In this document: positions 36,989 through 44,834 of the stretch, in pieces
Position numbering within the stretch: position 1 is the stretch's first letter
How the letters are laid out: every line of letters begins with the position of its first letter
Source: Acidimicrobiales bacterium
Lineage (GTDB): Bacteria > Actinomycetota > Acidimicrobiia > Acidimicrobiales > SHLQ01
DNA: 64,000 nucleotides
Assembly (NCBI GenBank): GCA_020629635.1
Contig: JAHDCX010000006.1
Coordinates: 92,012-156,011, forward strand
Direction: 5' to 3'
Made by a program: the position numbers and the translations under genes
The notes under the pieces: generated by a model
What the model was told of the DNA's origin: nothing
Database searches by the model: none
Seen by the model: the letters and a program-made list of their open reading frames with translations, nothing else

Positions 36989-37040
36989 CCTTCGGTTACT
37001 TGCCCGAAGGCCGCAGGTTCAAATCCTGCTCCCGCCACCA
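36989..37040 (+). other. Orphan tRNA 3' fragment (long hairpin + T-arm + acceptor 3' strand + CCA); likely att-site remnant
   Basis: GCAGG-TTCAAAT-CCTGC T-arm (37013-37029), TCCCGCC-A-CCA (37030-37040). It is preceded by a 7-bp hairpin (36989-37010) that could be a class-II variable arm. There is no matching 5' acceptor strand (GGCGGGA) upstream, because the etfA stop abuts it directly. Confidence 0.5.
37026..37040. repeat. 15-bp target-site duplication, left copy (CTGCTCCCGCCACCA)
   Basis: Identical 15-mer at 38324-38338, immediately flanking the IS ends. Confidence 0.8.
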
Positions 37041-38323
37041 TGTGATGTCTCAGGACATCGGAAACCCTCGAACCCCCGGGTTCGGGGGTTTCTCATGTTT
37101 TGAAGCGGGGTTGGTAGCCGACGTCGGGGTTGAGGGTGAGGTGTCGGATGAGCTCTCCGGTGGCCTTGTTGACGACTCGGATATCGAGGTTGTCGATGAT
37201 GAGTATGACGGGTGTTTGTTTGAGCGAACGTCCGAGGCTGATGTGGTGCATTCGGCCGGCGCGGCGGAGGGAGACGGCGCCGGTTTTGTCGACGCGGTCG
37301 TGGCGGATCCGGTAGTGGTTTCCGGCGCCGTTGTTGCCGGGTTGGTCTTTGGGGAGTCGCTGGTAGGCGACGGCGGGTGGGACTTTCCCGATGGCGGTGT
37401 GAGCACGCCGGTGGTTGTAGAGGTGGACGAACTCGTCAAGAAGGGTTTGGAGTTCGGCGAGGGTTTTGGCGGGTGGTCGGGCGGTGGTCCATCTCTTGAG
37501 GGTTTGTTGGAAGCGTTCGACTTTGCCGGTTGTGGTGGGATGGTTCGGCCGGGTGTGTTTGTGGGTGATGCCGAGGTCGGCGAGGCGGGTTTCGAGTTGG
37601 TTGCGGCCGCCTGGGTAGCCGGCGAAGCGGACCGTGTAGACGAGGCCGTTGTCGGTGAGCACCGATGCTGGAAACCCGTGTGTCTCAGCGGTTTTGTTGA
37701 AGGTGTCGCGGACGATGTCACCGGTGACACGACGGTGGGCTGATACGTGGAGGGCGTATCTGGAGTGGTCGTCGAGCCAGGTGATGGTTTCGGTGTCGGT
37801 GCCGTCAGCGAGCCAGATGTGGGTGAAGTCTGATTGCCAGGTTTCGTTCGGCAGCGCTGCTTCAAAGCGGATGTAGGACGACTTGGGCCGCTTCTTGGGT
37901 GCGGGTTCGACCAGTCCGGCAGCGATGAGTCGACGGCGGATCGTGGACACCGACACTGCGATCCCATGAGTGTTTTGGAGGTGCCATTGGATCGTGATCG
38001 GCCCGGCGTCCAACCCGTCGGCGGTGAGTTGTTCGCGCAGGTTCACGATGTGATCGGTTACGACATCGGGAACCTGATTCGGCGACGTCTGTGGGCGCCG
38101 CGACCGGGGTTCATACGCGGCGTCGCCGTCCGCCCGATAGCGGGCCATCAGTTTCGAGACCCAGCTGCGAGACACCCCGAACCGTCTCGCCGCTTCAGCC
38201 TGCGAGATCCTCTCCACCGTGACCGCTGTGATGATCGCTCGAGCCTTCGACATCACCCACGATGCCAACCCACTTGTTTCCTATGTCCTGAACAACCTGT
38301 TTCCGATGTCCTGAACCACAACA
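37041..38323 (-). mobile_element. IS481-family insertion sequence (1,283 bp)
   Basis: Ends begin TGT. Imperfect 25-bp inverted repeats match 21/25 (TGTGATGTCTCAGGACATCGGAAAC vs TGTTGTGGTTCAGGACATCGGAAAC). Single DDE transposase ORF. 15-bp direct repeats flank the element. Confidence 0.85.
37093..38268 (-). CDS. IS481-family DDE transposase (rve integrase core)
   Basis: N-terminal HTH (ISQAEAARRFGVSRSWVSKL). ETWQSDFTHI (D), VLTDNGLVYT (D), TTGKVERFQQTLK (E). Confidence 0.9.
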   Translation of the reverse strand: MASWVMSKARAIITAVTVERISQAEAARRFGVSRSWVSKLMARYRADGDAAYEPRSRRPQTSPNQVPDVVTDHIVNLREQLTADGLDAGPITIQWHLQNTHGIAVSVSTIRRRLIAAGLVEPAPKKRPKSSYIRFEAALPNETWQSDFTHIWLADGTDTETITWLDDHSRYALHVSAHRRVTGDIVRDTFNKTAETHGFPASVLTDNGLVYTVRFAGYPGGRNQLETRLADLGITHKHTRPNHPTTTGKVERFQQTLKRWTTARPPAKTLAELQTLLDEFVHLYNHRRAHTAIGKVPPAVAYQRLPKDQPGNNGAGNHYRIRHDRVDKTGAVSLRRAGRMHHISLGRSLKQTPVILIIDNLDIRVVNKATGELIRHLTLNPDVGYQPRFKT

Positions 38324-38338
38324 CTGCTCCCGCCACCA
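38324..38338. repeat. 15-bp target-site duplication, right copy (CTGCTCCCGCCACCA)
   Basis: See left copy at 37026-37040. Confidence 0.8.
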
Positions 38339-38345
38339 AGCGAAA

Positions 38346-38373
38346 GGCCCGGAAACTCAACAGTTTCCGGTCC
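38346..38373. terminator. Hairpin CCGGAAAC-TCAACA-GTTTCCGG with T-rich flanks on both strands (bidirectional terminator)
   Basis: 8-bp perfect stem at 38349-38356/38363-38370. Followed by CCTTGTCGTTGT on the plus strand and by TTTCGCTT on the minus strand, downstream of the TIR gene. Confidence 0.5.
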
Positions 38374-38431
38374 TTGTCGTTGTCTGGTGCCGGACGGCGA
38401 TGTACCAGGACGGGACCATGCCAAACCGGTG

Positions 38432-39550
38432 TCAAACCTCCGGTCCTGGTCGGGGACGGCTCAACACCCGAGCGATTTCGTCAGCAGCACCGGCAGAGTC
38501 CTCAAACCAGTCGATCGATTGGATGTCCCGAAGCGTCTCTCCCGCGCCGATGTCGAGATCGGGGATCGTGCAGTCGTTCAAGCGGACGGGTATGAACCAC
38601 GGCTGGTTGTGCGGACGCTGCCTGATCTCCTCGACTGCAACTGTCAGCTCCTCGTAGACGTAAGACCTGTCGCGTTTCTCAAGCTCTTTGGAGAAGCAGG
38701 CGATGAAGCCGCCCCCCGTCGAGATTGCTTGCCTAATCTCTCGTTTCCAACGACTTCCGGCCTCCAGTTGCTCACGGTCAATCCAGGTTTCGAGTCCCGC
38801 CTTCTTGAGGTCGTCCTTGAGCCGACCGACTTCGCCAGAGTTTTCGTGGACGTAGCTCAAGAAGGTGGGCGGCTTCATTGGGGTCCTGTCTTCGAGGCGT
38901 GCAAGCCGGGTCACCGCAGCTCGTTCGGGCTTGGCACTCGAAGTTGGTGCTTTGAAGCTGGGAAGCCCGAGGTTGTCTTTCTCGGCTTGGGCCGAGGCTT
39001 GCTTGGCCTGGATCGCCACGAGTCGTGATCGGACTGTCGTCTCAACGCCCTCGTTCCAAGTGGCCAGCTCAGTGTTGGACTTGGCGATGAGTTCGCGGAT
39101 AGCGACCACGCGGCGGTCGAGCTCTTCCTTTGTGTTTGGGGCCATGTCTAAGCGAAATGTGATTGCGTTCGCTCGTTTGTCGTATGACGTCCCGTTCACA
39201 TCGGGACCACCACCACCGCCCGGTCGGGCCACCAACAGAGCTGGATCGCCCTTCAGCACGGGGAGAAAGATATCGACAGTCTCGATGTCGTGGAAATGGC
39301 CCCGTGAATCGCCACATCGAAATCTGGTGCAGGGCACCCTGAGGCGGGCGGGCCCATCTGCCCGTGCAGGTTCGCCCACTAGGATCTCGGACTGTTGAAG
39401 CTCCGCAGTAACGGCGGCGACTCGATCAGCCAGTTCGTCCTGGGTGATGTCAGTTTCGGCCTTGATCGCGTTCTCAAGACGCCCACACAATAGGTCCCTG
39501 AGCAGGACTCTGGCGCCGGGCTTCGACCAATCGTATTCGAGAATCTCCAC
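38432..39550 (-). CDS. TIR-domain protein with unknown N-terminal domain of about 230 aa
   Basis: C-terminal TIR pattern: TFLSYVHENSGEVGRLKDDLKKAGLETWIDREQLEAGSRWKREIRQAISTGGGFIACFSKE...SYVYEELTVA. GTG start at 39550, 9 nt after the integrase stop. Confidence 0.8.
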   Translation of the reverse strand: MEILEYDWSKPGARVLLRDLLCGRLENAIKAETDITQDELADRVAAVTAELQQSEILVGEPARADGPARLRVPCTRFRCGDSRGHFHDIETVDIFLPVLKGDPALLVARPGGGGGPDVNGTSYDKRANAITFRLDMAPNTKEELDRRVVAIRELIAKSNTELATWNEGVETTVRSRLVAIQAKQASAQAEKDNLGLPSFKAPTSSAKPERAAVTRLARLEDRTPMKPPTFLSYVHENSGEVGRLKDDLKKAGLETWIDREQLEAGSRWKREIRQAISTGGGFIACFSKELEKRDRSYVYEELTVAVEEIRQRPHNQPWFIPVRLNDCTIPDLDIGAGETLRDIQSIDWFEDSAGAADEIARVLSRPRPGPEV

Positions 39551-39559
39551 CCAGGGAGT

Positions 39560-40688
39560 CTACGGGTCCTGCCTGTTCGCACTTACCAGATTGGCCACCG
39601 CGAGCGCTGCGTCGGCCTGCATTCCCGGGATCACCTTCGGCGGCACGCCAGCCGGCAGCGCGATCGTGGCGTGGGTGTGTCGGAGGTCGTGAAGTCGAAT
39701 CTTCGGTAGCTCGCTCCTCGCGATCAGCCGCTCGAACGCCTGGGTGTATGTCTGCGGGTGAAGCGGTTGGCCGTCCTCTTTGCAGAACACGAGGTCGCCG
39801 TCTTGGTAGTCCGAACCCCACTCGGTTCGCTCGTCCAGCTGGCGCCGCCGATGTCCTCGGAGGTGTTCGATCGTTCTCGGGTCGAGATCGATCACCCGGG
39901 CCTGATGGTTCTTGGGTCTCGACCCCACGAGTTCGTAGGCGACTGACACGAGCGCCTGCCGCACATGGATCCGTCCTGAGCCGAGGTCAACGTCGGCCCA
40001 CCGAAGGCCAAGCACCTCGCCACGGCGCATGCCGGTGATTGCGGATACGTGCCAGGCCGTCTCGAGGCGGTGTCCTTCGACGAGGCGTAGGAAGCAGCGC
40101 AGCTGTTCGGGTGTCCAGAACCGATAGTTCTGCTGTCGCACGCGCTCGCGGCCGGGGCGGCTTCGCCCGCTCCGCAACGTTGGTTTCGACCAGCCCGGCA
40201 TCAAATGCGTCCGCAAGTGCCTTGTGCAACATCGTGTGGATGTACCTACCGCACGGCCTCGCGCTGAGCCCGCCCGGCCCGTTGCGACGACCGTTGGTCC
40301 ACAGCTCCGCGTAGAGCGAGTTCAGCTGGCCGGGCCCGATGTCACGGATGCTTCGGCCACCGAGCGCTGGAAGCACGTGATGGCCCATGTTCCGGCGGTA
40401 CGACTCGAACGTGCTGGGCTTCACCTGCGTCTCAACGGTCGGTAGCCACTGGTCCTCGACCCACTCCCGAATCGTCAGTTTCGTCGGCTCGGTGTATGTG
40501 CCGTCGTGCAGGTCGCCGACGATCTTCGTTCGAGCGCCCTCCGCCTCCTTGCGGGTGAGGAAACCGCCATGTCACTTCTGGCGACGTTTGCCGTTCGCGT
40601 CTCGGCCAAGATCGACGACGACGTACCAATTGACAGTCTCCTTGCCGGCCTTCGTGGTGTGGGTGCGCTTGCGGATGTGCCCCTGCAT
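39560..40688 (-). pseudogene. Tyrosine recombinase (phage-type integrase) pseudogene
   Basis: N-terminus MQGHIRKRTHTTKAGKETVNWYVVVDLG...RRQK then in-frame TGA at 40572-40574 where W is expected. Frameshift near 40140-40160 between ...AERAKPPRP and ...RFWTPEQL. The C-terminus jumps from HDLRHTHATIALPAGVPPKV directly to IPGMQADAA, so the segment with the catalytic His/Tyr is deleted. Confidence 0.8.
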
Positions 40689-40698
40689 GCGTGCCGCC

Positions 40699-40907
40699 TC
40701 ATGCGGCCGGCGTCGAAACGCCGAGCCACTCCAGCAACGCCGGAACGGGAACGATCACGCGCCGACCGAGCTTCCGGCAGGGGATCTCGCCGCGCCGGGC
40801 GGCTGTGCGCCCAAGACCGAGCAGCGATGCGACTTCCTCTGCGGAGAGGTGAGTCGGGTCTCGATGTCGTCGAGGCCAAGCGGGTATGAGCGCGTACGCT
40901 CGTTCAT
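40699..40907 (-). pseudogene. Excisionase-family (MerR-like HTH) gene, apparently frameshifted
   Basis: ATG 40907 opens MNERTRSYPLGLDDIETRL. The typical Xis HTH (LSAEEVASLLGLGRTAARRGEIPCRKLGRRVIVPVPALLEWL) continues in another frame and stops at 40699-40701. Confidence 0.45.
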
Positions 40908-41035
40908 GTCGGAACCTCTTATGAGGGTTCTGGCCAGGCCCCGGGGGTGTTGGCGCACCGCCGGGGCCACTTATTGTCGACGGAAAAGACTACCGATAGG
41001 CGAGACGTTGTCAACGTGTATAGACTCAATTCATC

Positions 41036-41242
41036 ATGGGAAGACTGGTCGACCTTGACGATTTGATTGACGTCGGTGAAGTTGCCGAGATCCTCGGCCT
41101 GGCGCACAAGAACAGCGTCACCACGTACATGCGTCGATACGACGACTTCCCGGAGCCAGCGATCGAATTCGCGGACGGCAAGTGCCGGACCTGGTTGCGG
41201 CAAGACGTTGAAGGCTGGCGTGCTACGCGTGAGGACGGCTAG
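41036..41242 (+). CDS. Small HTH DNA-binding protein (AlpA/excisionase-like)
   Basis: 68 aa. IDVGEVAEILGLAHKNSVTTYMRRYDDFPEP...WLRQDVEGW. Confidence 0.6.
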   Translation: MGRLVDLDDLIDVGEVAEILGLAHKNSVTTYMRRYDDFPEPAIEFADGKCRTWLRQDVEGWRATREDG

Positions 41243-41291
41243 TGGATTTGGTCAGATCCAAACAACGCGTCGCAGACCACGTCGAGGCACG

Positions 41292-42116
41292 GTGCGAGTG
41301 ATTTCGAGAACGACACGGTCGTTCAAGAGGTGTTCGGCGACGAGATTGCCTAGCCCTGGCTTCCGAGCCGCCACCGTTTCGGAGCTCGCCCGGAGTCGGC
41401 TGGCAGACTACATCGACGTCGCAGCTTCGAGGTTGAAGAGAGCCTCAAAGCGGCTCAGACCCCAAGTGGCCCGCTCGGCCGAAAGGTCCCAGGAGTTTTG
41501 GGAGTCGCTGATCCCCAGGATCAAGGACGACGTCGTCTACCTCCACTCGACTCGGCATAGGTTCGAATTGCTTGTCGAGGCCGCCAGAAATCCTGAGATC
41601 CCCGAGCCAAACCACGTCATGGAGTACGTAGCGGGCCTCTACGCGAACACGGTGCTCGTGGGGTTGCGCCGACAGGCGGACAAAGATGATCGAACAGCGA
41701 GTCTCCGAGTGCTCCTCCGAGACCTGCGACAGCATCCCAAACATGCGACGCGTGATTGGTACGTCGCAAAGTATCCGGCACACCTCGAGGACATGGCGAA
41801 CAGCACCTTCGATAGGTTCACTACAGAAGTCGGAGACCAGTACATCAGCCGCAAAGAAGTGGAGCAGGACCTAGCGCGACTTGGGTCGGTGACGAAAAAG
41901 CTGACCCACGTGGTGAACAACCAGATCGCACATCTCAATCAGGCTCCCGAAGGGGGTGAGGCCACGTTTGCGGATGTATCGGCTGCGCTGAAGGCATACG
42001 AAGATCTCGTGCAGCGCTACTTCTTGCTCGTCGACGGCGCAGCGCTCACAGACGCGACGCCAACGCTGCAGTTCGATTTCCTGCGACCGCTGCAAGTGCC
42101 GTGGGTCGAGCGCTAG
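41292..42116 (+). CDS. Hypothetical helical protein, possibly AbiU2-type HEPN-like
   Basis: Codon-plausible part of ORF 41067..42116. No ATG, so a GTG start at 41292/41298 is assumed. C-terminal ...KKLTHVVNNQIAHLN resembles the xxxAH end of HEPN Rx4-6H motifs, but the Arg is missing. Confidence 0.4.
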   Translation: MRVISRTTRSFKRCSATRLPSPGFRAATVSELARSRLADYIDVAASRLKRASKRLRPQVARSAERSQEFWESLIPRIKDDVVYLHSTRHRFELLVEAARNPEIPEPNHVMEYVAGLYANTVLVGLRRQADKDDRTASLRVLLRDLRQHPKHATRDWYVAKYPAHLEDMANSTFDRFTTEVGDQYISRKEVEQDLARLGSVTKKLTHVVNNQIAHLNQAPEGGEATFADVSAALKAYEDLVQRYFLLVDGAALTDATPTLQFDFLRPLQVPWVER

Positions 42117-42426
42117 CCCGGAGGTGTCAAACCTGTGTCAAGCGAACCGAGTGCAACCGACGAGCCTTTCCCGTAAGGGTCCGTACGGGAGGCCTGTGAA
42201 AACCGCACGATTCCGGTGGTTCCCGAAGGCTTTGGCACCCACCCGGACCACCGTACGTAACTCATAAACCGAAGGTCGCCGGGAGCGTCGGTAGGACGTG
42301 AGCGACGCGCAATGCGACAACTTCCATCACCCGCCAACCCAGCTCGACGCCGGCTCGATATCGAACGCCACCGTCGGATCAGATACAACGGCGATCACAG
42401 AGTCATCAACTTGACGGGAGCCAGGG

Positions 42427-43023
42427 GTGTCGCGGTTGGATCTAAAGGCTTGTCTCGAAAGAGGCACACGTCATTTCTTGGAGGCGTGGTACGGAGTTGA
42501 CCTGCTCGGAGCTGACGCTCGGTGGGGCTCACAGCCAAAGCCCTTGCGCGAATGGTGGGGCTGGCAAGAGGCATCCGACGTGGCGTTCATCCACCAGAAC
42601 CATCTGCTGAGCGAGCTTCGCAGCCGAGATCAGTTCACAGTCTTCTACGTCGAAAACCAGGCTGTCGTGCAGTGGGCGTATGAAACTGCTAGCGATGACC
42701 CCGACCCGGAGGTCTTTGAGCGGACCAATGCCGACCAGTCGGCTTGGGAACCCCTGGGTATGCCGATGTCCCAGTTCTTGCTCCTGATCGCCTGTTTCGA
42801 AGCGGCCATCGGCGCGGAGCACGCGCTATGGGTCAACGACCCGACTGCAGAGCACGTCGACCTGTTGACCGACGGTCTTGCGCTGGCCGACGGAGCAGCT
42901 TTCTGGGAGATGCAGGTCTATGTCGGCGACGAGGCAGTCCTTACGCTCCACTCCAACACCGTCGCGATCTATTCCTCACCGGATCCCTCAGTGATCGAAG
43001 GTAAACGAGACAGCCTGTCGTAG
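42427..43023 (+). CDS. Hypothetical protein (Trp-rich, possibly SMI1/KNR4 (SUKH)-like)
   Basis: GTG start. 198 aa. No catalytic motif recognised. Lower-GC codon usage. Confidence 0.4.
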   Translation: MSRLDLKACLERGTRHFLEAWYGVDLLGADARWGSQPKPLREWWGWQEASDVAFIHQNHLLSELRSRDQFTVFYVENQAVVQWAYETASDDPDPEVFERTNADQSAWEPLGMPMSQFLLLIACFEAAIGAEHALWVNDPTAEHVDLLTDGLALADGAAFWEMQVYVGDEAVLTLHSNTVAIYSSPDPSVIEGKRDSLS

Positions 43024-43271
43024 GCGCCGGCTTGCCCAGTGATTGCGTTGCTAGAGCACCGGTGGAGGATCGTTGTCAGCCCGCTGATGGCGGGTGGCCA
43101 GCCCCGAAGTAACGGCACTTGCTCGAGTAGGGAGTTGACCTGATTGCCTGTCTCGCTCAGTGAGTGATCGCTACAGATTTGTGGCTCTTCCGGGGTTGTT
43201 CGAGCCGACCGTCGATGCCTGGCGAGGGGTAGATCGCTGAGGGTCGGCGGGAGGTAGGGGTGTGAGGACCG

Positions 43272-44648
43272 TTAGTCGAGGCTCACTCGCCATCTTCCGT
43301 CAGGGGCGCCTTTGCTTGGTATCGCTGGCGGTGAGAGAAGGGGAACCGACGGCAGCTCTTCTGTGGCTACCTCGGGGGCCCGCTCGCGTCGACGTGGAGC
43401 GCGGGCTTGGTAGGCGACCAGGTCCTGCAAGACGTCTCCGTAGAAGGACTCGATCGCGTCCACGACAGATTGGGAGAATCCAGGCTTCTTCCCCGCCTTG
43501 CGGTTTTGACCCATCTCACTTCGCGCCACAAGTCGGAACTTCACGGGGTCCCTCTTTTGATCGCTCAGGAGCACGGCTGGATCAGTGCGCACCGCTTCGA
43601 GGGTGGCAGCCGATCCGCTGCGAGCATTCTTCGGAAAGGCCTCGACAACAAGACCGGCTGGCGCGTCCTTGAGCTGTCGGGTGAGCCATCCGATCCTTCC
43701 CTTCGCACCCTTGTCTCCCGGTGCCTCGAATGAGGTGGACACCAAGATCTGTCGAGCCTTCAGGTCGACATCGATCTCGAGATCCGAAATGGTGTCGGGG
43801 ATTCGGAGCGCTCCGCTGAGTTTGCCCTCGATAGCAAGCTCCTCTACGAACGATTTCGTCCGAAGTGAGGGATCAGCGACATGCGCTCGAGGGACGACTT
43901 CCTGTACGTCTTCGCCGATGTCAGATCCCAGCTTCAAGCTTGCGTAGCCAAGGAGCTGGTCCCAGCGTTGCGCGATATCGACCACTGCATCGTCACGCTT
44001 GTTCAGCGTGCCGTTGCGTCCGCCATCCCGAACCTCCACCCAGTTCTCACCCATGTCGTCGAAGCCCACTGCACCGGATGCGGGATGCTCGAGGTAACGG
44101 ATGAGCTCGCCAAGGATCCATGTTTGCTCTGGGTCATCGATCCCACGGTGCACCTTTTCCATCACCGCCGTCGTCAGTACCCGAGTCCAGCTGATGTGAT
44201 GAAGCGCCACCTTCGAGTTGGCTCGCAGCTTCAGTCCCGAAGGATGTGCTCCCGGCGAGGCTGGAATCTCATTCGAGATACTGAGCACGCAGTCGTACCC
44301 ATTCTCCTTTGCCACATCGACATACCGCTCGAGCTGCTCCGAATCGAGCTTCGATGAACCAGACTTCACCTCAACAAGTCCCACCCACGGCTTTTGACTG
44401 CCGAACGTCACGCGAATCAATCCGTCAGGCCTGACAGTGGTTCCGGTCTTCAGCTTGAAGGTCGTTTCGATGAACGTCTCGACTGTGGCCTTGCCGGCCT
44501 TGCTTGCTCCGAGCGGCGCTAGCAGAGCTATCGAGAACGGCCGCACGACGGAGAGCACCGCCAGCAGCGCTGAAGTCGCTCGCTGCTCGGCTTCCCGGTC
44601 CCCTGAGATCCCTGCGACCGAGATCAAACGCGCTTCTTGCCAACTCAT
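43272..44648 (-). CDS. PD-(D/E)xK nuclease-fold protein with large C-terminal extension
   Basis: Start ATG 44648 (MSWQEARL). RPDGLIRV...WVGLVEVKSGSSKLDSEQLERYV fits the D...(D/E)xK core. About 300 aa of unknown C-terminal domain. Confidence 0.55.
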   Translation of the reverse strand: MSWQEARLISVAGISGDREAEQRATSALLAVLSVVRPFSIALLAPLGASKAGKATVETFIETTFKLKTGTTVRPDGLIRVTFGSQKPWVGLVEVKSGSSKLDSEQLERYVDVAKENGYDCVLSISNEIPASPGAHPSGLKLRANSKVALHHISWTRVLTTAVMEKVHRGIDDPEQTWILGELIRYLEHPASGAVGFDDMGENWVEVRDGGRNGTLNKRDDAVVDIAQRWDQLLGYASLKLGSDIGEDVQEVVPRAHVADPSLRTKSFVEELAIEGKLSGALRIPDTISDLEIDVDLKARQILVSTSFEAPGDKGAKGRIGWLTRQLKDAPAGLVVEAFPKNARSGSAATLEAVRTDPAVLLSDQKRDPVKFRLVARSEMGQNRKAGKKPGFSQSVVDAIESFYGDVLQDLVAYQARAPRRRERAPEVATEELPSVPLLSPPAIPSKGAPDGRWRVSLD

Positions 44649-44834
44649 GATGCCCCCGTGGCCCCCGCCGCTGCTGAATCGCAACCTACCGCGTTGTGTT
44701 GGTCAGTGACGTCAATCCAGCGAGCAGGTGCCCGCTCGAAACAATCGCCAGGCCGCGTTCGCCCAGCCATCGCGAGCAACGTCGACGAAAGCTCGTTCAC
44801 CCCGCATGCGGCGAAGCGGCAGCACAGGACACCG

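Follow-up and report, generated by a model that had tools for sequence, protein, structure and literature searches.

The window analyzed here is a stretch of 64,000 nucleotides (nt) from an Acidimicrobiales bacterium (contig JAHDCX010000006.1, positions 92,012 to 156,011), and coordinates given without a locus name count from its first letter. An earlier note on this DNA, made from its letters and open reading frames (ORFs), had singled out a gene for a TIR-domain protein between an attachment site (att) remnant and a dead integrase, and this gene and its surroundings are the subject of the present analysis. The ORF lies exactly where it had been placed, at 38432..39550 on the minus strand; it is intact, starts with GTG and encodes 372 amino acids (aa). 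From its N-terminus the protein consists of a module of residues 1 to ~195 (38966..39550, delimited by an AlphaFold2 (AF2) model, PADLOC and hhalign; termed N-module below) that ends in a long helix, a predicted disordered linker of residues ~195-228 (38867..38968; predicted local distance difference test score (pLDDT) <50 for residues 195-224) and a TIR domain of residues ~229-364 (38459..38866, delimited by Pfam, Foldseek and a profile search against the PDB), all encoded on the minus strand. Upstream, the TAG stop codon of a tyrosine-integrase pseudogene (39560..40622, minus strand, identified with Pfam and tblastn) is separated from the GTG start by a 9-nt spacer (ACTCCCTGG), a distance that had been read correctly from the sequence. 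Downstream, folding and shuffling placed a terminator-like hairpin with a 9-bp stem (38349..38370, minus strand) between the stop codon of the TIR gene and the att core.

The TIR gene has the properties of an intact coding sequence. Its 372-codon frame stayed open in 0 of 5000 shuffles of its own sequence, and its GC content at the three codon positions (0.65/0.47/0.68) looks like that of a gene and is of the "island" type; the corresponding third-position value of etfA is 0.81. The gene is single-copy in its genome, and the same protein together with the same broken integrase was present in short contigs from two further sequencing runs. Among 5.8 billion clustered proteins there was one full-length homologue (P0002, 374 aa, 58% identity), and the protein was found neither in 40 related genomes nor in the GTDB species set. 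Synonymous sites between the window gene and the P0002 gene are saturated (proportion of synonymous differences, pS, 0.71-0.75), which makes dN/dS unusable, and selection was therefore judged by setting the proportion of nonsynonymous differences (pN) against pS. With a pN of 0.27 for the whole gene, 0.30 for the N-module and 0.17 for the TIR domain, both parts appear to have been under purifying selection since the split of the two orthologues; the linker is the least conserved segment (33% identity, pN 0.49). The hairpin region 38339-38431 (minus strand) folded at -39.9 kcal/mol (z = -3.1, none of 200 shuffles being equally stable), and a counterpart hairpin is present behind the P0002 gene in its locus L001 (z = -2.6).

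The C-terminal domain matched Pfam TIR_2 (PF13676) at residues 230-354 with E = 2.4e-20 and 73.7 bits against a cut-off of 28 bits, and contains the motif SYVYEEL, which bears out the reading as a bacterial TIR domain that had been made from the sequence. A six-frame search of the genome recovered TIR_2 in the same gene at 76.2 bits and as the only such domain of the genome. The AF2 model of the full protein had a mean pLDDT of 66.6, with values of ~57-85 for the TIR blocks. Searched against the PDB with Foldseek, it gave 61 matches at E<=1e-3, of which all those listed are TIR domains, with target-normalised template modelling (TM) scores of up to 0.74 and alignments spanning ~135-225 columns. 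SPARTA TIR-APAZ (8spo) ranked first, followed by MyD88, SARM1, TIR-STING, AbTir and BtpA, and nothing beyond TIR or nucleoside-deoxyribosyltransferase-like matches was obtained for the full model from the PDB and BFVD. SPARTA TIR-APAZ was also the best match (E = 2.3e-8, whole domain) when a subfamily profile built from the TIR parts of seven members was compared with PDB sequences.

The catalytic glutamate of SARM1 is E642. In the profile alignment, Glu77 of TIR-APAZ (VLK-E-L) fell on Glu301 of the window protein (VYE-E-L), which is the predicted catalytic glutamate in the context Y297-V-Y-E-E301-L (codon 38648..38650, minus strand); the glutamate proposed from the motif thus kept its place in a proper alignment. 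Glu77 of SPARTA TIR-APAZ is catalytic, and the E77A variant loses NADase activity (PMC9097488). Residues E300 and E301 as well as the aromatic Y297, four residues upstream of E301, were invariant in 7/7 subfamily members. The closest TIR relatives are joined to differing partners (TPR repeats, a REC-LuxR response regulator and domains without assignment), which resembles the behaviour of a portable effector domain. Taken together, the C-terminal domain is a TIR domain with a predicted catalytic glutamate and a preceding aromatic residue, nearest to the SPARTA TIR that depletes nicotinamide adenine dinucleotide (NAD+).

The integrase pseudogene upstream is an orthologue of the intact integrase of L001 (62-77% identity). 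Its Pfam Phage_integrase and SAM-like matches fall in two different frames, and tblastn against the L001 orthologue revealed three disabling lesions, namely a stop near codon 17, a frameshift at about residues 150-165 and a 20-codon deletion that takes out ISERLGHENPAFTLKQYAHV, which carries the catalytic His and Tyr; the integrase is indeed dead. The distance between integrase and TIR gene is 9 nt in the window and 10 nt at P0002 (L001), and the junction TAG-ACTCC is kept; such conservation in an orthologue of 58% identity fits a possible co-transcription of the two genes. Downstream of the TIR gene an IS481-family insertion sequence (IS; 37041..38323, minus strand, recognised by its ORF, Pfam and its repeats) with a 391-aa rve-type transposase and 25-nt inverted repeats (84% complementarity) interrupts the att core precisely at its CCA end and produced a target duplication of 15 bp.

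This state of decay bears on the explanation that the TIR gene is a non-functional relic, unbroken so far and silenced by the decay of the integrase gene and regulatory region and by the arrival of the IS. The three integrase lesions and the insertion in att agree with a relic, as does the lack of a sigma-70-like promoter on the minus strand of 38300-41300, although consensus scans are not very reliable in high-GC Actinomycetota. However, an intact frame of 372 codons lies beside an integrase gene of equal length with three lesions, for which a rough Poisson estimate gives a chance of ~0.05 if both had the same lesion rate. Moreover, the catalytic and subfamily-invariant residues are all kept, and the IS lies beyond the terminator and left the gene untouched. 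We consider it unlikely that the gene is such a relic.

The att remnant mentioned in the earlier note turned out to be a tRNA 3' fragment whose last 15 nt were duplicated by the IS. By sequence match the att core (~36990..37040, plus strand) is the 3' portion of an initiator-type tRNA-Met, from the 3' strand of the anticodon stem through CCA; there is no 5' half. The fragment (CCCGAAGG...GGTTCAAATCC...CCCGCCACCA) equals the tRNA-Met core of the element family with 2 mismatches, and no complete tRNA was called within the window. The 15-mer CTGCTCCCGCCACCA that forms the 3' end of the core is present in a left (37026-37040) and a right copy (38324..38338, plus strand), and we read the two as the target duplication of the IS because they flank an IS with 25-nt inverted repeats. 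Before the insertion the terminator of the TIR gene directly abutted the tRNA 3' fragment. L001 shows the same order: its intact integrase is followed after 10 nt by the TIR gene, then by the hairpin and, on the opposite strand, by a tRNA-like 3' core. In both copies the TIR gene is therefore the sole gene between integrase and att core, an interval that spans 38339-39559 in the window and is referred to as the slot.

With the intact L001 integrase as probe, 80 related loci (L026-L105) were collected, which come from metagenome-assembled genomes (MAGs) labelled Acidimicrobiia (including Ca. Microthrix and Iamiaceae) and Solirubrobacterales; farther matches occurred in other phyla. In the set with integrases of 54-77% identity, the integrase gene and an initiator-type tRNA-Met point towards each other, and the distance between the integrase stop codon and the tRNA is bimodal: 12 loci have at most 202 nt, 13 have 1.4-4.3 kb and a single one has 484 nt. 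Four further loci, including L001, have the att core only, without the full tRNA. Slots were read by this distance together with a filter on GC content by codon position, since picking the first ORF after the integrase is unreliable in GC-rich loci. Filled slots contained a C5 methylase and an NgoMIV-type endonuclease (L030), N6/N4 methylases (L034 and L057), a PLD-helicase-DUF3427 protein that corresponds to the PADLOC type IV methyl-directed restriction enzyme (mREase_IV, E = 3e-275; L036), a methylase with McrC and McrB (L040), an HNH nuclease (L047), Mrr and a RES toxin (L069), a PtuA/AriA-like ATPase (L028) or an SDH-type protease (L053). Slot genes without annotation were found in L033 (5531-7446, three genes), L026 (7104-7991, 295 aa), L045 (7505-8521, 338 aa) and L034 (8340-9059), and these could be new defence genes. 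No relative of the TIR domain or the N-module was present in the 80 loci. Because the filled slots hold restriction and other defence genes, the interval between integrase and att appears to be a defence hotspot of the P2/P4 type, in another element family and phylum.

The same survey bears on the explanation that the TIR gene serves the element itself, either as a post-segregational (addiction) toxin or as an accessory of integration or excision. Its tight coupling to the integrase gene in both copies and the RES toxin that a related element carries in this slot would agree with such a role. Yet 12 related elements have nothing in the slot and others fill it with unrelated genes, mostly restriction systems, so its content seems dispensable for the life cycle of the element; in addition, no antitoxin-like small gene lies beside the TIR gene, and the gene persists after the integrase died. 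An element-serving function is therefore very unlikely in our view.

Several bacterial TIR domains, as in Thoeris, are signal generators, and the TIR protein might accordingly be the signal-generating half of a two-part system in the manner of ThsB, producing a signal of the cyclic ADP-ribose (cADPR) type or a related one for a separate effector encoded in the island or elsewhere in the genome. Two candidates for that effector are encoded in the rest of the island (41292-44684), namely an AbiU2-like HEPN protein (Pfam E = 4.9e-7) and a nuclease-like protein of 470 aa with a weak Tox-REase-7/PD-(D/E)xK match; this part of the island also encodes a 198-aa protein of no assigned function. P0002 also gave a marginal match to the ThsB1 model (E = 0.009), and the part of the element upstream of the integrase in the second copy is hidden from view: positions 1-82 at the contig end of L001 are Illumina P5/Nextera adapter (AATGATACGGCGACCACCGAGATCTACAC...AGATGTGTATAAGAGACAG), an assembly artefact. 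Against a two-part system, the slot holds the TIR gene alone in both copies, whereas multi-gene cargos of related elements cluster inside the slot. For the AbiU2-like, 198-aa and 470-aa genes, none of the 80 related loci has a counterpart; they make up independent cargo, across the backbone from the slot. The ThsB1 match covers generic TIR residues only.

Direct searches for a partner agreed with this, and the statement that no canonical partner is adjacent held up in the domain and PADLOC scans. Scanning the locus with Pfam, NCBIfam and PADLOC revealed no adjacent canonical TIR partner gene. A SIR2_2 protein of the ThsA type was absent from the 96.5%-complete genome and from the island, a search that did not extend to the Macro/TM type of ThsA, and Pfam and PADLOC detected no SAVED, cyclic-nucleotide (cNMP)-binding, APAZ or reverse transcriptase (RT) domain and no cyclase in the island. 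A large N-module is, furthermore, typical of self-sensing effectors, and relatives of this module in the PADLOC candidate family PDC-S54, described below, stand alone. We consider the two-part explanation rather unlikely.

In the AF2 model the N-module comprises two helices, a beta-sheet (~56-135) and one long helix of ~55 residues (140-193). A model of the N-domain alone, computed from a 2-sequence alignment, reached a pLDDT of 44.5; Foldseek found no match at E<1 for it, a result that is uninformative. The earlier description of this domain as matching nothing recognisable stood for Pfam (even at E<=10 and for both N-domains), NCBIfam, PHROGs and PDB sequences. It also stood when residues 1-229 were compared exhaustively, by phmmer, with 1.84 billion representatives; only the protein itself and three repeat proteins were returned. 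It did not stand for PADLOC, where a remote match to the N-terminal half of PDC-S54 emerged.

Among the 5027 PADLOC models, PDC-S54 (PDLC05036) was matched by both N-domains when these were searched alone, and neither of them matched any other family. The P0002 N-domain matched with E = 2.4e-7 (residues 26-215 on profile positions 25-218 of 410) and the window N-domain with E = 4.7e-4 (residues 81-205 on 85-209) in the same register, and ten composition-matched shuffles of the N-domain produced 0 matches at E<=1. A profile of PDC-S54 N-halves, built from genes recovered in genomes of the same phylum (L007-L011), aligned with the profile of the two N-domains over 170 columns in hhalign (E = 4.7e-5, probability 68%). 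The two have the anchors (V/L)P-x-x-GD-x-x-L(F/L), (F/W)N and LG(I/L)P in common, as well as a long helix at the end. Small hidden Markov models (HMMs) made from PDC-S54 N-halves scored 4-8 bits and were beaten by 0/2000, 0/2000, 1/3000 and 2/3000 shuffles, which is too weak alone; the homology call leans on the deeper PADLOC model and hhalign. On these grounds the N-module is quite probably a remote homologue of the PDC-S54 N-half, with the effector swapped.

The C-half of PDC-S54 carries the PD-(D/E)xK signature GKTDILIR...NLFICECKFW (D...ECK) without a Pfam match. The family is common, with 179 matches of ~410-420 aa, compared with two members for the TIR version of the module. Its neighbours vary (HsdR, a Schlafen/AlbA_2 protein and unrelated proteins of no assigned function), in keeping with a single-gene module. 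The N-domain match is thus to an uncharacterised single-gene candidate and not to a ThsB-like or otherwise characterised family with a partner; no functional study of PDC-S54 or of the PADLOC candidate PDC-S66 was found in the searchable literature. One feature sets the TIR version of the module apart, namely C74-x4-C79-x5-H85-x-H87 (VPCTRFRCGDSRGHFHD, region 39313-39330), which is kept in both copies and absent from PDC-S54 and may be a metal site specific to this version.

Two other sets of matches were not taken as relationships of the N-domain. The three repeat proteins from the phmmer search were judged artefacts and rejected as homologues; they include a PD40-like beta-propeller with a repeat similar to residues 91-125. 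PDC-S66 (282-position profile) matched the window protein at residues 146-277 (profile 73-200, E = 6.7e-6) and P0002 only at 217-279 (137-200); the part shared by these matches is essentially the start of the TIR domain, which together with the helix probably explains them, and the N-domains alone gave no match to PDC-S66. As a separate observation, residues 91-125 (DIETVDIFLPVLKGDPALLVARPGGGGGPDVNGTSYD, 39176-39280) resemble a single blade-repeat of PD40/TolB-like beta-propellers (P0009, six matched stretches); the likeness of the motif is striking but is probably convergence, since one unit cannot form a propeller.

Several peculiarities were observed within PDC-S54 itself. In L011 (1492-3411) and L018 the gene immediately follows the HsdR gene of a type I restriction system; an IS3-type insertion interrupts it, and the profile match picks up again 2.5 kb on. 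In L014, L015 and L016, from three genera that belong to a single family of the same phylum, the match is confined to the N-half (profile 1 to ~200) and holds 1-5 in-frame TAA codons, in small low-GC genomes; these could be decayed fragments, N-module-only genes or a signal of recoding. Among the family members P0011-P0130, two sharply distinct variants occur just upstream of the PD-(D/E)xK core (...AEAFNxxGKTDILIR... and ...AETDNQGGHTDILAR...) in forms that are near-identical elsewhere, a pattern that suggests cassette-like exchange inside the nuclease half.

From the evidence assembled above we favour, with a probability of roughly 60%, the explanation that the TIR gene encodes a self-contained single-protein abortive-infection effector, carried as the sole cargo in the slot between integrase and tRNA-fMet of small integrative elements. 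The earlier note had left the choice between a self-contained sensor-TIR protein and one half of a two-part system; the first is preferred because the predicted catalytic glutamate is in place, the gene is alone in its slot, related slots hold complete systems, and neither a ThsA-type SIR2 protein nor another TIR domain was found, and also because the other island genes are not conserved and the PDC-S54 relatives stand alone. The effector would be carried by an element family of Acidimicrobiia and Solirubrobacterales and be transcribed constitutively at a low level from the integrase promoter. The N-module would sense an infection cue, or the long helix would keep the protein as an inactive dimer or otherwise auto-inhibited. 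Activation of the helix-mediated dimers would then allow TIR-TIR assembly into a composite active site, and hydrolysis of NAD+ would halt growth of the infected cell before the phage cycle is completed. Depletion of NAD+ is preferred over signalling because no receiver is evident and the closest TIR domains, those of SPARTA, deplete it. Continued benefit to the host would be the reason why the gene outlived its integrase.

A number of points weigh against this explanation. The family has only two members, and the hidden DNA upstream of the integrase in L001 leaves room for a partner there. TIR domains can make signals instead of depleting NAD+, and the sequence cannot tell which applies; the element has decayed, with an IS just downstream. 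As regards the N-module, its homology is remote (68% in hhalign, 4-8 bits with our own HMMs) and the match rests partly on a long helix, which is prone to spurious matches; the N-domain model is of low to moderate confidence and has no fold match, and PDC-S54 is itself an unvalidated candidate.

A broader proposal joins three parts: that the N-module is an undescribed sensing or assembly module with interchangeable killing domains, that the slot is an unrecognised hotspot, and that its unannotated cargos are new defence systems. We hold this joint proposal tentatively, at slightly less than even odds. If it were true, the two families would represent a natural effector swap in which one rare front module is combined with either a TIR NADase or a PD-(D/E)xK nuclease; such a swap would mark the module as the part that senses or activates, and would provide a matched pair for finding what it recognises. 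The slot would in turn be minable for defence genes in poorly studied, mostly uncultured Actinomycetota, as the P2 and P4 slots are in enterobacteria. The TIR gene in itself is an ordinary TIR-effector defence candidate, and with two copies its importance is limited unless the module proves structurally widespread. The putative effector swap and the hotspot are useful leads, drawn from a family of two members, a remote homology and a function deduced from sequence.

Beyond the slot, the backbone of the element includes a small helix-turn-helix (HTH)/excisionase (Xis)-like gene divergent from the integrase gene (41036..41242, plus strand; PHROG matches to excisionase and DNA-binding proteins). 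This gene is conserved in >30 loci, ~400-600 nt upstream of the integrase and divergent from it, and its closest copy (86% identity) was found in a Ca. Microthrix MAG (L026), a hint that the window genome is related to Acidimicrobiia. The att site shows an irregularity of its own. The copy beside the integrase is reduced to the tRNA core in the window and at least four related loci (L001 at ~2443-2500, L026, L028 and L032), unlike simple integration, which should leave an intact tRNA on the integrase side. The first 8 nt of the att core in the window also form a hairpin with the sequence just after the etfA stop codon. This half-tRNA att may have arisen through tandem elements, through integration at a secondary site within a terminator hairpin or through a deletion.

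Compared with known systems, the TIR protein shares features with several and appears to belong to none of Thoeris, SPARTA, CBASS/Pycsar effectors or retron-TIR, because their defining features were tested for and were absent. Like the window protein, ThsB of Thoeris is a TIR defence protein with a catalytic Glu, but it has no N-module of ~200 aa, and the window protein gave no ThsB HMM match at E<=0.01. The TIR effectors of CBASS, Pycsar and type III CRISPR systems differ in that the SAVED_TIR match covers only profile positions 7-78 of 404, within the TIR part, and neither their sensor domain nor a cyclase is present. The retron-TIR model (NF042941) scored 15 bits against a cut-off of 600 bits, again in the TIR part only, and neither an RT domain nor an Rfam retron RNA was detected.

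The closest resemblance in the TIR domain is to SPARTA TIR-APAZ (8spo, 8fex and further PDB entries), which is the nearest solved TIR by both profile and fold, with E77 corresponding to E301. In contrast to SPARTA, the window protein has no APAZ region (the Aga_TIR-PNTD match covers only profile positions 7-133 of 430) and no adjacent short Argonaute, and its TIR domain is C-terminal instead of N-terminal. By analogy the output is likely the same, oligomerisation-dependent NAD+ depletion (PMC9097488), and the trigger, if the analogy holds, must differ from that of SPARTA. In architecture the protein is similar to AbTir, TcpB (BtpA) and PdTir, which combine an N-terminal helical dimerising region with a C-terminal TIR domain (TIR E = 1.4e-6 to 1.7e-6; Foldseek matches to 7uxu, 4c7m and 3h16). 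On the other hand, the N-module of the window protein is larger and contains a beta-sheet, PDB searches detected no sequence relation to the N-termini of these proteins, and the window gene sits in a defence hotspot of an integrative element.

The N-module is most similar to PDC-S54, with which it shares ~200 co-linear residues, the long helix at their end and the occurrence as stand-alone genes in defence or mobile contexts. The C-half of PDC-S54 is a PD-(D/E)xK nuclease (profile ~220-410) where the window protein has a TIR domain, and the matches stop at 209-219; the TIR protein thus appears to be a sister architecture and not a member of PDC-S54. The setting of the gene resembles the defence hotspots of P2 and P4, in which a fixed backbone slot receives alternative defence cargo (PMC13586616), and here too the slot is fixed in the backbone and either empty or filled with unrelated defence systems. 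The elements described here differ from those in family and hosts: they come from MAGs of Acidimicrobiia and Solirubrobacterales, use a tRNA-fMet att and have their slot between the 3' end of the integrase gene and att. Overall, by analogy the protein would work like known TIR-effector defence proteins.

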